Notes: generated from the letters alone by a model not told the origin. A DNA stretch of 46,078 bases from a virus (IMGVR_UViG_2675903417_000003), one strand, 5' to 3'. Shown: positions 1 through 43,226, counted from the stretch's first letter. Numbers and translations are program-made.

Positions 1-1605
<1,605 letters not shown>

Positions 1606-1697
1606 TTGTTTTAACCTCATGACAGATTTAAGGATGAACAAATCCCTGCCATTGCTGGCATATAAGAATGAAACCGGATATTTATTACGGAACTGTT

Positions 1698-1889
1698 TTA
1701 AAGACCTGCCGGGATTTCGATATTATCCTGGTGAATAACTTTATCGACCGGGTAACAGTTACCGGGAATTTTCTGTTCGGTTGCTGCAGTCATACACTCC
1801 TGCATTGTCCTGTGAACACTGACTGCAATATCAACTGGCTCTCCGGAAACAAGAAAAACTGTCAGAACAAGCACAAATGCTGAATTCAT
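1698..1889 (-). CDS. ydfD: YdfD-like small lysis protein
   Basis: 63-aa product MNSAFVLVLTVFLVSGEPVD... with hydrophobic N-terminus; ATGA overlap with the dicB stop. Confidence 0.7.
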   Translation of the reverse strand: MNSAFVLVLTVFLVSGEPVDIAVSVHRTMQECMTAATEQKIPGNCYPVDKVIHQDNIEIPAGL

Positions 1890-2074
1890 TGTGCACATCC
1901 TTTTGGCATCAGACGTAAACGAGCCAGCATTGAAACAATGCATATTTTATTTAATAGCTCCCGTTCTTGTTTTCTCTTGTTAATGGCATCTTCAGTAAAT
2001 ACTGGGTTACTGATAGTGACACCAATTTCAAAACAACCTTCAGACGTATTAACGTTTGGTAATAACGTTTTCAT
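1886..2074 (-). CDS. dicB: Cell division inhibitor DicB
   Basis: 62-aa product MKTLLPNVNTSEGCFEIGVTISNPVFTEDAINKRKQERELLNKICIVSMLARLRLMPKGCAQ recognised as DicB; internal start within ORF 1886..2179. Confidence 0.85.
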   Translation of the reverse strand: MKTLLPNVNTSEGCFEIGVTISNPVFTEDAINKRKQERELLNKICIVSMLARLRLMPKGCAQ

Positions 2075-2248
2075 TATCGCGTCCTCAACAATGAATTTTG
2101 TGATGCAGTGCCTGGTGCCTCCAGGTGACGTTAACCAGTTAACAATTAACGCCGGATACAGAGAATCCACCCATAACACTGTTTTTGGTTTTAACTGTTC
2201 CGCGTGCGCTCAGCCGCATTCACCACATCACAAAATTCACTTTAAAAA

Positions 2249-2301
2249 GGGCGGCAGAGCAGTCACGGAGTAAAACTGATACCGCCAAACGTCACCAGAA
2301 A
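2249..2301 (-). ncRNA. dicF: DicF small regulatory RNA (ftsZ-targeting)
   Basis: Reverse complement of 2249-2301 reads TTTCTGGTGACGTTTGGCGGTATCAGTTTTACTCCGTGACTGCTCUGCCGCCC, matching the recalled 53-nt DicF including its 3' terminator hairpin, followed by a T-run (2244-2248 on the plus strand). Confidence 0.85.
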
Positions 2302-2641
2302 ATTGATAACAGAGGGCGTTGCAGCGGGGTTGTCACTTAAGCGTATGGTCAACCTGACAACCCGGTGTCCTCAACGGGGAAGGAATAACCCCGCCATACT
2401 TACCGCCGCGCCATTTCGCGGGTTGCCACAACCGGAAGCGCACGGTCGACGAAAATTTAACGACAGGCTATCTATGAACCAGCTACCTCGCCGTGCGCTT
2501 TCGCGTTATGGTCTGACTTTTCAGGGAAATATCCTTTCAGTAAACTGTCAGTTCCGGATGCGCACCCGTGTCCGGCGCACGCACTCCACCTCACCCGTGG
2601 AGAACTCCTTAATTACTAACCTTAGCTTTGTTGATTAGCTA

Positions 2642-2860
2642 CTAACGCGGGTATGTAATCATTCTGGCAATGCTTAATGCCGCTGCTTTTTCCAGATTGG
2701 TGATATCCTGCTCCAGAGCGGACAGATTTTCAGCCTGCTTAGCCCTGGCTTCATTAGCCCATTTCAGATCCTGCGCTGCATTAATTTTCTGGCGCATCCA
2801 CTCATAAAGTTCATCATCGGTATAGTCTGGCGCGATGATGACGGGTTCTCGTTTCTGCAT
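2642..2860 (-). CDS. ydfC: YdfC-like protein
   Basis: 72-aa ORF MQKREPVIIAPDYTDDELYEWMRQ...; in the operon position between ydfB and dicF. Confidence 0.7.
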   Translation of the reverse strand: MQKREPVIIAPDYTDDELYEWMRQKINAAQDLKWANEARAKQAENLSALEQDITNLEKAAALSIARMITYPR

Positions 2861-2888
2861 ACTGATTCCTCGCGGTGCTGTTTCGCTT

Positions 2889-3060
2889 ATCAGCCGTTAG
2901 ATTTTGCCGAACTGGAAAGCGCGTGTTTAAACTCACTGAAGCTGAGAGCTTCTTCGCCTTCGGCAAGGCCTTCGAAGTATTCTTCGTAAGCCTTTTCCAT
3001 GATTGTGTCGAAATCCGTATCACTCACCTGAGTTTCTTTCCAGCCAGCGACGGGCACCAT
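2889..3060 (-). CDS. ydfB: Small ORF, YdfB-like (start uncertain)
   Basis: Below the ORF-track threshold; translation MVPVAGWKETQVSDTDFDTIMEKAYEEYFEGLAEGEEALSFSEFKHALSSSAKSNG; overlaps the ydfA 3' end in another frame; an internal MEKA start at 2996 is also possible. Confidence 0.4.
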
Positions 3061-3175
3061 TTTCGGTTTTAAACGTTTTGCTTTTGGTATACGTCATTGC
3101 GGTGAACGTGCCGTCCTGGTTTGGAAACACGCCGTACACCAGAGATTCGTTGTTGCCAAGATCGATAGTATCCAT
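3020..3175 (-). CDS. ydfA: YdfA-like protein
   Basis: 51-aa product MDTIDLGNNESLVYGVFPNQDGTFTAMTYTKSKTFKTENGARRWLERNSGE; GAGG Shine-Dalgarno about 7 nt upstream. Confidence 0.7.
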   Translation of the reverse strand: MDTIDLGNNESLVYGVFPNQDGTFTAMTYTKSKTFKTENGARRWLERNSGE

Positions 3176-3289
3176 GCTGACCTCATTTCCCCTTAACGCC
3201 GGGGTAGCGGAACTGTTTGCTGAGAACACCGTGCGGTGTCTTGATGGAAAGTAATTTAGAATAACCTAACATGATAGGCAAGTGTTTTT

Positions 3290-3307
3290 TGTTAGATTGG
3301 TCTAACA
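3290..3307. promoter_or_regulatory. Perfect 18-bp palindrome TGTTAGA-TTGG-TCTAACA, putative DicA operator downstream of dicA
   Basis: Exact inverted repeat; same half-sites as the palindrome at 3801-3818. Confidence 0.5.
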
Positions 3308-3343
3308 AAAAGAGTGGGCGCAACTAATCACTTGAAAAGAATG

Positions 3344-3751
3344 TTATTTTATTGATTTATTTTTACGCGCTTTAAGCATTTCTTCGAAGAGTTTGTTGAA
3401 GTTTTCTACTCTTGCGCGCATTTCAGACAGCAAGGCTTCCTGCTCGGAAGATGGAAGAGCATCGAATAATTCGATCAATTCTTTGTGGTTGGGAGTTAGC
3501 TCTGTTTCCACATGAAGTTCTTGTGCAGGCACTGGTGCCTTGTCTTCGTCACCAAACATTAGCCATGTAGGTGAGCACTTCAGAGCATCCGCTAAAGCAA
3601 ACAATCGTTTTCCGACTGGCTGGGTTTCGTCTCTTTCCCATTGTGAAATTGTGACGTGAGCAACTCCAGCGAGGCGCGCAGCTTCTCGTTGTGTTAAGCG
3701 TAATTCTTTTCGTCGCGCCAGAACTCGCTGGCCTAGGGTTCTTGTATCCAT
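3344..3751 (-). CDS. dicA: DicA-like HTH (XRE/cI-type) repressor
   Basis: 135 aa; HTH LRLTQREAARLAGVAHVTISQWERDE and C-terminus close to recalled DicA; divergent from dicC. Confidence 0.9.
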   Translation of the reverse strand: MDTRTLGQRVLARRKELRLTQREAARLAGVAHVTISQWERDETQPVGKRLFALADALKCSPTWLMFGDEDKAPVPAQELHVETELTPNHKELIELFDALPSSEQEALLSEMRARVENFNKLFEEMLKARKNKSIK

Positions 3752-3774
3752 AGTTAGGTAATTCTAATTTTTCT

Positions 3775-3818
3775 TGACTTAGGTATCCCGCGCACAATAA
3801 TGTTAGAAAAGTCTAACA
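3775..3818 (+). promoter_or_regulatory. dicC promoter (-35 TTGACT 3775-3780, -10 ATAATG 3797-3802) overlapping the operator palindrome TGTTAGA-AAAG-TCTAACA (3801-3818)
   Basis: Sigma-70-like hexamers with 16-bp spacer; perfect 18-bp palindrome across the -10/+1 region in the dicA-dicC intergenic space. Confidence 0.5.
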
Positions 3819-3831
3819 AGAGGGGGCTTTG

Positions 3832-4059
3832 ATGCTTAAAGTTGACGCAATTACTTTTTTTGGCAGCAAAACAAAGCTTGCCAATGCCGCAGGGGTGAGA
3901 CTGGCAAGTGTTGCTGCTTGGGGGATACTGGTTCCTGAAGGTCGCGCGATGCGTCTACAGGAGGCATCTGGCGGGGAGCTTCAGTATGATCCCAAAGTTT
4001 ATGATGAATATCGTAAGACGAAGCGGGCGGGGCGGTTGAACAATGAAAATCACTCCTGA
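3832..4059 (+). CDS. dicC: DicC (Cro-like) regulator
   Basis: 75 aa MLKVDAITFFGSKTKLANAAGVRLASVAAWG...; AGGGGG Shine-Dalgarno at 3821-3826. Confidence 0.85.
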   Translation: MLKVDAITFFGSKTKLANAAGVRLASVAAWGILVPEGRAMRLQEASGGELQYDPKVYDEYRKTKRAGRLNNENHS

Positions 4060-7658: not shown

Positions 7659-7929
7659 ATACAGCGAACTCCATTGGTTTAGTTGGATATTTACTGTGCT
7701 GGACAAAAACGGTTTGCGGGGAAATCTTAGTTAAGTAGAATGACTGCGGGTGCTTGAGGCTATCTGCCTCGGGCATGGACACCAACGGCAGATAGAGAAA
7801 AGCCCCAGTTAACATTACGCGTCCTGCAAGACGCTTAACATTAATCTGAGGCCAATTTCATGCTAGACACATGTAGGTTAGCCTCTTACGTGCCGAAAGG
7901 CACGGAGAAGCAGGCTATTGTTAACACCA

Positions 7930-11456: not shown

Positions 11457-11577
11457 ATTTTCAACGCGTTTGAAGTTCTGGACGGTGCCGGAATAGAATC
11501 AAAAATACTTAAGTAGCGCGCAGGGATAAGAGGGATGGTCCCTTAAAGGGGAGAGCTAATTATCCGGAAGGATTCTG

Positions 11578-11829
11578 ATGATGAACATCGAAGAACTGCG
11601 TAAAATTTTTTGTGAAGATGGCCTCTATGCTGTGTGCGTTGAAAATGGAAATCTTGTTAGTCATTACCGCATTATGTGTTTGCGAAAGAATGGGGCTGCG
11701 TTAATTAATTTTGTGGATGCTCGGGTCACGGACGGATTTATCTTGCGCGAAGGTGAGTTTGTCACTTCATTACAGGCATTGAAAGAGATCGGAATAAAAG
11801 CTGGCTTTTCTGCTTTTTCAGGAGAATAA
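11578..11829 (+). CDS. rem: Rem-like prophage protein
   Basis: 83 aa MMNIEELRKIFCEDGLYAVCVENGNLVSHYRIMCLRKNGAALINFVDARVTDGFILREGEFVTSLQALKEIGIKAGFSAFSGE. Confidence 0.75.
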   Translation: MMNIEELRKIFCEDGLYAVCVENGNLVSHYRIMCLRKNGAALINFVDARVTDGFILREGEFVTSLQALKEIGIKAGFSAFSGE

Positions 11830-14625: not shown

Positions 14626-14925
14626 AAAAATTCCTTAATACTGATAACTTGGCGCACTATACACACGTTCCTGAAGAAAGCTATAGTTTTTTGATGGGGT
14701 TGAAGATGGCTGGATGTCTAAAATAAACATTGCTTCATATGTTCAACTATGCGTTAATGATTGCGTCGGTTTGAAGAACAGACGATATACGAAGTAGTTT
14801 ACTAAAGCAGTTCTCATTTCAGGTGTTATTCACTTATTCCTTCTTTGAGTCTCTCCAATTAAGTACGAAGTCGTTTCTGTTATGCAAACCATTTATGCCG
14901 AAAGGCTCAAGTTAAGGAATGTAGA

Positions 14926-15141
14926 ATGTCAAATAAAATGACTGGTTTAGTAAAATGGTTTAACGCTGATAAAGGTTTCGGCTTTATTTCTCCTGTTGAT
15001 GGTAGTAAAGATGTGTTTGTGCATTTTTCTGCGATTCAGAATGATAATTATCGAACCTTATTTGAAGGTCAAAAGGTTACCTTCTCTATAGAGAGTGGTG
15101 CTAAAGGTCCTGCAGCAGCAAATGTCATCATTACTGATTAA
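14926..15141 (+). CDS. cspB: Cold-shock protein CspB-like
   Basis: 71 aa [71 protein letters not shown]; long 5' UTR and AAGGAA Shine-Dalgarno. Confidence 0.9.
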
Positions 15142-15423
15142 AATTCATCGCTCGTCTGTATACGATAACGAAGAAGGCTGATGCCTGAGTAGAGATACGG
15201 ACAGAGTAGTGAATATTGGATCTCTTTAATAAAAAGTAAGGAGGTCCAATACATGAAACAATGGCTAGCATATTTGGCAAAATCTTAATCAGGAAAAGTA
15301 TGCTAACCATTGTGGTGAAGTGCAGGTTTGCTGCATGAATAGTTTTACAGCAGAAGCTAACTGCTGGCATGGCAAAACAAAGTGCGTAAGTGGATGACTC
15401 CCACAAAAAGCACCACAATCTCA

Positions 15424-17459: not shown

Positions 17460-17821
17460 GGTAATATTAAATCGGAACATTTACATCGCGGAATGTAAAA
17501 TTTAAATAAAAAGGACTCTTCCATGAGCCAAAATTCCTGAAATCTTAAGGGTAAGATAAAAGGTCTTAATCAGAATGACACGTTTTATTAATAAATAAAG
17601 CTATTCTTTCATTGCTGTGTTTTTCTTTACAAAAGTAATCCTTGCTATGGGTGGTTAATCATGCGTTAATGGTGTTCTGGTTTGTTACAAATTTATCTGA
17701 AGCAGTCATTGTTATAATTTTATTATTTGTACCTCTTGAGATTTCCTTGTTGGTTTTTCTCTCTGATATTTTTTTTCGGACCATTCTGCCCAAGGGCTAA
17801 TTTCTTCAAAAGGTAATAATT

Positions 17822-18034
17822 ATGTCTAACAAAATGACTGGTTTAGTGAAATGGTTTAACCCTGAAAAAGGTTTTGGTTTCATCACGCCGAAAGATGGCA
17901 GCAAAGATGTGTTTGTCCATTTCTCAGCAATTCAGAGCAACGATTTCAAAACATTAACTGAGAATCAGGAAGTTGAATTTGGTATTGAGAACGGACCTAA
18001 AGGTCCTGCCGCTGTTCATGTAGTGGCGCTTTGA
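17822..18034 (+). CDS. cspI: Cold-shock protein CspI-like
   Basis: 70 aa [70 protein letters not shown]; long AT-rich 5' UTR. Confidence 0.9.
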
Positions 18035-18233
18035 GGTAGACAATATTACAAACCATATTCACTTTAGATGCCCGTGTTGTCATGGTTCCCAGTATAGAAC
18101 ATCATCTTTTGATGTTTCTGACATGAATCCTTTCGGGGCAAAATGTATCTTTTGTAAATCAATGATGATTACATTTGATAATATTTCACAATACTTAAAT
18201 GCCAGCCGTCTGTCGTTGGATTTAAAAAAGTGA
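18024..18233 (+). other. Open frame encoding a zinc-ribbon-like peptide with no canonical start codon
   Basis: Frame HFRCPCCHGSQYRTSSFDVSDMNPFGAKCIFCKSMMITFDNISQYLNASRLSLDLKK; ends just before the terminator at 18241. Confidence 0.3.
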
Positions 18234-42651: not shown

Positions 42652-43226
42652 TGGCATTCAGAATGAGTGAACAACCACGGACCATAAAAATTTATAATCT
42701 GCTGGCCGGAACTAATGAATTTATTGGTGAAGGTGATGCATATATTCCGCCTCATACAGGTCTGCCAGCAAACAGTACCGATATTGCACCGCCAGATATT
42801 CCGGCTGGCTTCGTGGCTGTTTTCAACAGTGATGAGTCATCGTGGCATCTCGTTGAAGATCATCGGGGTAAAACGGTTTATGACGTGGCTTCCGGCGACG
42901 CGTTATTTATTTCTGAACTCGGTCCGTTACCGGAAAATGTTACCTGGTTATCGCCGGAAGGGGAGTTTCAGAAGTGGAACGGCACAGCCTGGGTGAAGGA
43001 TACGGAAGCAGAAAAACTGTTCCGGATCCGGGAGGCGGAAGAAACAAAAAACAACCTGATGCAGGTAGCCAGTGAGCATATTGCGCCGCTTCAGGATGCT
43101 GCAGATCTGGAAATTGCAACGGAGGAAGAAATCTCGTTGCTGGAAGCATGGAAAAAGTATCGGGTATTGCTGAACCGTGTTGATACGTCAACTGCACAGG
43201 ATATTGAATGGCCAGCACTGCCGTAG
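42651..43226 (+). CDS. tfa: Tail fiber assembly protein Tfa
   Basis: 191 aa [48 protein letters not shown]... Confidence 0.9.

Follow-up and report, generated by a model that had tools for sequence, protein, structure and literature searches.

The stretch of DNA analysed here (the window, 46,078 bp) is a Qin-type lambdoid prophage with a variant immunity allele. It is a fuller form of Qin, since a genome 99.9% identical to it over positions 639-25000 has the genes beyond the immunity region annotated as relBE, hokD, rem, ydfU, the Q antiterminator, cspF/B/I, lysis genes, terminase and portal. At the immunity region are found a dicA-type repressor gene and a dicC-type Cro-like gene, the latter followed by a YdaT-family gene and then a replication gene, as well as a dicB-type operon located 3' of dicA (Table 1). 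The names dicA, dicC, ydfA and dicB operon, as given by an earlier reading made from the sequence only (the sequence-only reading), are borne out by matches to HTH_3, P22_Cro, DUF1391, DicF and DicB; regarding the controlled operon, its Pfam matches are DUF1391, DicB and DUF1482. The repressor shares 57% identity with DicA from K-12, and DicC shares 86% with its K-12 counterpart. The segment 2600-4100, which includes the immunity allele, is covered to at least 80% in 110 of the 5,426 complete Escherichia coli genomes, while parts of it (ydfABC) are present in 4,149 of them.

Further from this region, rem is located at approximately 11577-11828 (+), as transferred from the 99.9% identical genome. 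Rem is an antirepressor reported to relieve DicA repression in K-12, and its presence in the prophage fits with a DicA that has no RecA-cleavage site (PMC10448788). Gathering-level Rfam matches occur at 7748-7919, 14765-15157, 17676-18061 and 42994-43192, corresponding to the sok antitoxin RNA, two cspA-type thermoregulator leaders and the IS009 RNA; the sok RNA adjoins hokD, and the two thermoregulator leaders are those of cspB and cspI of Qin. The left end of the window possesses a group II intron domain match at 37-123 (+, 64.9 bits), an IS3-type transposase open reading frame at 150-596 and a 387-aa reading frame at 478-1641 (-), the latter corresponding to part of a 3'-5' exonuclease gene of 2,472 bp in related genomes, which match the window from 639 onward only.

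Table 1. Features of the immunity region and of the controlled operon (positions in the window; strand left empty for operator sites)
Feature	Position	Strand	Description
Controlled operon ydfA-ydfB-ydfC-DicF-dicB-ydfD	1698-3175	-	
ydfD	1698-1889	-	dicB operon
dicB	1886-2074	-	DicB domain match
DicF RNA	2249-2300	-	76.7 bits
ydfC	2642-2860	-	dicB operon
ydfB	2890-3018	-	dicB operon
ydfA	3020-3175	-	DUF1391
dicBp (putative)	3253-3281	-	-35 TTGCCT 3281-3276, 17-nt spacer, -10 TAAATT 3258-3253; start near 3245-3246, predicted from homology
OB-proximal	3254-3271		imperfect operator ATTTAGAATAACCTAACA, minus strand TGTTAGGTTATTCTAAAT; P22 OL1 alignment
OB-distal	3290-3307		perfect operator TGTTAGATTGGTCTAACA; P22 OL2 alignment, cross-genus conservation
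dicA-type repressor	3344-3751	-	135 aa; HTH_3 Pfam match, E 1.5e-14
Oa	3752-3769		imperfect operator AGTTAGGTAATTCTAATT, minus strand AATTAGAATTACCTAACT; P22 OR3 alignment
dicC promoter	3774-3801	+	-35 TTGACT 3774-3779, 16-nt spacer, -10 AATAAT 3796-3801; 10/12 consensus matches in promoter scan
Oc	3801-3818		perfect operator TGTTAGAAAAGTCTAACA; exact match, K-12 Oc and P22 OR1 alignments
dicC-type Cro-like gene	3832-4059	+	75 aa; P22_Cro Pfam match, E 4.9e-12

Probable operator sites on the two sides of dicA

Two perfect 18-bp sites of the form 7+4+7, Oc and OB-distal, are present in the window, exactly as the sequence-only reading had stated. The pattern TGTTAGA-N4-TCTAACA, having 14 specified bases, is matched without mismatch at just these two places of the 46,078 bp and nowhere in any of 100 shuffles of the window that preserve dinucleotides, and the OB-distal site extends further to a perfect palindrome of 26 bp at 3286-3311 (11+4+11, with a stem of 11 pairs). 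When only the core TTAG-N6-CTAA is considered, four matches occur in the whole window (3256, 3292, 3754 and 3803) compared to 0.40 expected, a number seen in one of the 100 shuffles with no clustering required. All four are located within 3254-3818 (565 bp), in both intergenic regions flanking dicA, and this clustering is non-random; other spacer lengths of the TTAG/CTAA core gave no cluster across the window. As for further copies in the prophage, two imperfect ones are found, OB-proximal and Oa, both near dicA and both missed by that reading, and outside the immunity region nothing above chance-level matches with three mismatches was seen in the 46-kb scan.

On the dicC side, the promoter lies at the same position as the dicC promoter of K-12. 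The Oc site starts at the last base of its -10 and spans the start-site region, from approximately -7 to +11, so that its former description as a palindrome across the dicC -10 is roughly right. Meanwhile, Oa adjoins the dicA ATG, and its left half contains a -10-like TAGAAT located 9-14 nt before that ATG, which has no Shine-Dalgarno sequence (3749-3769, minus strand). At the aligned position in the P22 record, the PRM transcript has its 5' end 4 nt ahead of the c2 ATG; taken together with the TAGAAT and the missing Shine-Dalgarno sequence, this suggests that the dicA mRNA is probably nearly leaderless.

On the dicB side, the promoter was read by hand and is putative rather than shown, because its consensus score of 8/12 is below the threshold of the promoter scan and was not called. 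The OB-proximal site would span from approximately -25 to -8 of this dicBp, between the -35 and the -10 and sharing bases with the latter; its imperfection is explained by this overlap, as its right half CTAAAT doubles as the -10 TAAATT. The OB-distal site is located 37 nt past the dicA stop codon and 8 bp upstream of the putative -35, at approximately -61 to -44. The earlier assignment of this second palindrome to the dicB operon thus holds as regards an operator, but it is of the OL2 type and lies upstream of the -35, the site on the core promoter being OB-proximal. From centre to centre, the two sites are 36 bp apart here and 35-36 bp in relatives. Cooperativity between them is a guess, because this spacing is not an integral number of helical turns; OL1 and OL2 of P22 are spaced alike (35 bp).

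Between the dicA stop and dicBp (3308-3343), no intrinsic terminator was scan-positive in the window, nor in the K-12, Citrobacter, Buttiauxella and Enterobacter loci, while the Pantoea stewartii locus (L009, 1926-1942) has a clear one after dicA, GCCCGTTTTCTACGGGT followed by a T-run. Just after the putative dicBp start, a leader of approximately 70 nt (3180-3246, minus strand) reads CCATCAAG...CTCAG...GTTCCGC...CCCCGGCGTTAAGGGG and is kept from Escherichia to Pantoea and Erwinia regardless of the next gene. It folds into two small hairpins with modest covariation, has no Rfam match even at E <= 10 and shows no similarity to the put region of HK022, and no boxA was found in the early-left region of the window; this leader may be a processing, antitermination or translation-control element.

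Relation to the P22, lambda and K-12 switches

The P22 record, in which OR1-3, PR, PRM, OL1-3 and PL are annotated, was aligned directly to the window. On the right side, Oc aligns with OR1 and Oa with OR3, these last two being directly adjacent to the ATG of the repressor gene (...CCTAACTATG in the window, ...CTTAACTATG in P22), with a centre-to-centre distance of 49 bp between Oc and Oa and of 48 bp between OR1 and OR3. On the left side, OL2 is the aligned counterpart of OB-distal, the agreement extending through the A-run that follows, ACAC and the -35 TTGNCC, and OL1 is that of OB-proximal, the two sites being 36 bp apart compared to 35 bp in P22; the putative dicBp aligns with the annotated PL promoter and its +1, and CCATCA with the annotated PL start. 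In both systems, a C2/CI-type repressor gene is adjacent to and divergent from a Cro-type gene, and the sites form a cluster on either side of the former, where they overlap two early promoters (the left one putative here). Regarding the proteins, residues 1-71 of DicA match the N-terminal domain of P22 C2 (1adr, 2r1j; E ~1e-18), and DicC matches P22 Cro (1rzs, E 1.2e-6). The P22 repressor dimer binds 18-bp sites through positions 2-7 and 12-17, the central 4 bp being uncontacted (PMC4267663), a rule that fits the 7+4+7 form of the sites described here, as both are dyads with conserved outer half-sites and a variable centre.

Besides these similarities, there are differences. P22 has three operators on each side, whereas two full sites are found on each side here, the equivalents of OR2 (~3778-3795) and OL3 (3312-3329) retaining one half-site at most. 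The half-site is TGTTAG instead of ATTTAAG, and DicA, of 135 aa, carries a C-terminal domain that is short and unrelated. Of the left operators, the distal one matches best, in contrast to P22, where OL1 is the tightest (PMC4267663), induction would proceed via the antirepressor Rem and not via RecA, and neither an N-type gene nor a nut boxA follows the left promoter. The likeness to lambda is one of logic, as it is also a bistable switch: bound at sites to either side of its gene, the repressor shuts down a divergent pair of early promoters and activates its own, with Cro acting through the same sites. However, the lambda operators have no sequence homology to those described here, being 17 bp long, spaced by 23-24 bp and three per side, and the C-terminal domain of lambda CI mediates octamer looping.

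The prophage is of the same type as Qin of K-12, with the same order of genes (dicC divergent from dicA, then ydfABC-dicF-dicB-ydfD). Both have the half-sites TGTTAG/CTAACA at corresponding positions of the alignment, an Oc that overlaps the dicC -10 and a dicB-operon promoter just 3' of dicA. The site at 3801-3818 aligns base for base with TGTTAGTTATGACTAACA of K-12, which is its Oc (TTGTTAGTCATAACTAACAA on the other strand), and the K-12 counterparts of OB-distal and OB-proximal are TGTTAGCTATAGCATACA and TGTTAGTCATGGCTAATC, respectively. In K-12, the dicBp-distal site TGTTAGCTATAGCATACA bears two mismatches, while both strong sites are perfect here; moreover, positions 7/12 are T/A in the K-12 Oc and A/T in this one, replication, lysis and head genes are retained here, and DicA is a different allele.

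The operators of K-12 are named Oc, Om and Oa, in addition to those of dicBp (Yun et al. 2012; Ragunathan et al. 2023). As described by Yun et al. (2012, PMC3441716), Oc is bound by DicA in vivo and titrates it, has bases in common with the -10 of dicC (the dicC start was mapped by 5'RACE) and mediates both the repression of dicC and the activation of dicA, and a single A-to-C change in CTAACA abolishes the binding; the site at the Oc position in the window keeps this core, including that A. The interaction at Oc was also seen by EMSA with crude extracts, and dicC rises 700-fold when dicA falls (Yun et al. 2012), whereas isolated Om or Oa were not bound by DicA in vivo (data not shown, PMC3441716). 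In a dicA deletion strain, dicBp is de-repressed 22-fold, and the DicA/DicC pair switches in a bistable manner (PMC10448788). Regarding DicC, the strongest ChIP-seq signal is at the dic locus, with one site inferred on each side of dicA and a palindromic motif TT(A/C/T)G...C(G/A/T)AA (PMC11430063). The host factor YjdC (DicD), too, is found at the dic locus and is able to repress dic genes (PMC9283627). A paper from 2020 calls the location of DicA binding at dicB unknown or of low evidence (PMC7567609), and the main text of a ChIP-seq compendium in Nature Communications does not include DicA.

Conservation of the half-sites between genera and within the allele

When the DicA protein was scanned against one genome per species, loci were returned from E. 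ruysiae, E. albertii, two Citrobacter, Buttiauxella, Enterobacter hormaechei, Pantoea stewartii and an Erwinia, and the four-site layout is kept in all of them, across six genera and with variable spacers. The Escherichia, Citrobacter and Buttiauxella loci have TGTTAG-N6-CTAACA without mismatch at Oc and with no more than one mismatch at the distal site, and the spacer differs each time. Meanwhile, Enterobacter, Pantoea and Erwinia keep the TTAG...CTAA core with the flanks CCTTAG...CTAAGA, and the right half of the distal site decays. In the alignments of ten loci, the columns free of variation are those of the TTAG/CTAA cores, of the -35 TTG and of a block within the transcribed leader; at OB-proximal, TTAG and CTAA together with the TAA of the overlap between operator and -10 are invariant in the ten.

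The altered flanks of the Enterobacter, Pantoea and Erwinia loci (L008-L010) are seen at the operators ~67 bp before dicA and near 2046, and in the same three loci helix 2 of the repressor changes from TQREAARLAG to SQAALGKMVQ, helix 3 being identical. The joint change of flanks and helix 2 may be a specificity switch, in a single lineage. Three other loci, from E. coli ECMA0423 and two Shigella flexneri (L011-L013), were left out due to many small indels in the region; these indels, of 1-2 bp, run through dicA and the operators and reflect either decay of the switch or assembly errors. Matches from Campylobacter (L014-L025), which cover a stretch of 34 residues only, were ignored.

Within the allele, 80 IMG/VR loci with a DicA of 99-100% identity were compared together with E. 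ruysiae, E. albertii and the window, and collapsed to 20 upstream and 33 downstream haplotypes. Only 3 of the 48 core half-site columns are polymorphic, compared to 57 of 134 in the other intergenic columns, central spacers included (Fisher p = 1.6e-6), and to 10 of 24 in the central six-base columns of the operators (Fisher p = 5e-4). The half-sites of Oc vary only at the outermost position 18, and CTAAC is invariant across the 20 haplotypes. The half-sites therefore carry a footprint of purifying selection within the allele. Some haplotypes differ at positions 7 and 12, which reduces the functional core from the 7+7 of the perfect palindromes to 6+6.

Proposed switch and its alternatives

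Taken together, the two palindromes are very probably (about 90%) the two best-matching of four operators in a Qin-type immunity switch similar to immC of P22. We infer that they are bound by DicA of this allele, whose dimer would recognise the outer half-sites TGTTAG/CTAACA of the 18-bp site, the central 4-6 bp not being read directly. Since Oc spans the dicC start site together with the end of the -10, DicA bound to it would block rightward early transcription, that is, dicC, the ydaT-like gene and the replication genes, and would also stimulate dicA, as shown in K-12. On the other side, occupation of the OB-distal and OB-proximal pair would shut off ydfABC-dicF-dicB-ydfD, with OB-proximal directly occluding the core promoter of dicBp. 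The strong OB-distal site probably helps to load the weak OB-proximal one, if the two cooperate, and it may also block an A-rich upstream element by competing with the alpha subunit just upstream of the -35.

The proposal that one repressor gates both the Cro-like gene and the dicB operon, advanced by the sequence-only reading, is supported by the comparative evidence and by the work on K-12, but the picture needs the addition of DicC. The operators are probably common to the CI-like and the Cro-like proteins, as the ChIP-seq sites of K-12 DicC lie on both sides of dicA, and binding of DicC to the same sites would make the switch bistable. Oa, as the equivalent of OR3, would be a shut-off site for dicA, where DicC or an excess of DicA turns the gene off. 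Because DicA did not bind isolated Oa or Om in K-12, Oa may be mainly a DicC site, and its binding by DicA is doubtful.

The same ChIP-seq peaks flanking dicA, with their TTxG...CxAA motif, can also be read as a sign that the palindromes are bound mainly by DicC alone, or by the host YjdC in view of its occupation and repression of the dic locus, while DicA controls dicBp elsewhere or indirectly, a reading that finds some room in the description of the DicA site at dicB as unknown by one source (PMC7567609). This is improbable, since Oc of K-12, with the same half-sites, is DicA-dependent in vivo (PMC3441716) and the N-terminal domain of DicA is a close homologue of P22 C2, which binds 18-bp sites of this kind. 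Moreover, CI and Cro proteins share operators, therefore DicC binding does not exclude DicA, and the binding of DicC or YjdC is more a complement to DicA than a rival.

Regarding the left palindrome, its position past the dicA stop codon, its folding into the 11-bp stem (approximately -9.6 kcal/mol, z = -2.9 for the segment) and the fact that no other terminator was detected between dicA and dicBp would agree with the dicA transcript ending in an RNA hairpin that serves as a terminator or a 3' stabiliser. The stem is, however, AT-rich and on either strand is followed by an A-run and not by a U-run, the half-sites of this palindrome are found again at three further positions with no transcript end, and it aligns with P22 OL2; sequence variants fall in the centre equivalent to the loop and never take the form of compensatory changes in the stem, which leaves the hairpin reading very unlikely. 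As an intrinsic terminator in particular, the palindrome was rejected, having no U-tract, few G-C pairs and no call in the terminator scan. That the identical palindromes are a chance repeat or a functionless relic of duplication, for which only the AT-richness of intergenic DNA speaks, is effectively refuted by their absence from the 100 shuffles, by the conservation of the sites across six genera with variable spacers and by the footprint of purifying selection.

If the left palindrome is an operator, as preferred here, an additional role can be considered, although it is speculative and on the whole unlikely. OB-distal would be the left operator of highest affinity, where DicA acts as a roadblock to read-through from dicA and as the nucleation point for dicBp repression, or where DicC, at approximately -52, acts as a class-I-type activator. 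The site may insulate the dicB operon in this manner because no terminator is detectable between the dicA stop and dicBp, and, if the roadblock is true, the toxic dicBF operon would be shielded from the co-directional maintenance transcript of dicA. The loci were also compared to see if those with a degenerate distal operator tend to have a terminator after dicA; a scan-positive terminator was found in Pantoea only, so the correlation is too weak to back the roadblock idea.

The design of the Qin switch of K-12 was already described in 1986-88 (Bejar et al. 1986/1988, as related by later citing papers), so the general arrangement is known, and what is specific to this allele is that both strong sites are perfect. 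The sequence-only reading, unaided, recognised these operators of a prophage immunity switch from the raw sequence, a correct but ordinary finding that leaves the understanding of the system, whose design is partly tested in K-12, unchanged. The comparison gives a definition of the operator, TGTTAG-N6-CTAACA, present at four sites homologous to OR1, OR3, OL1 and OL2 of P22, and makes OB-distal, together with the OB-proximal site that overlaps the -10, concrete candidates for mutagenesis as the DicA site at dicBp.
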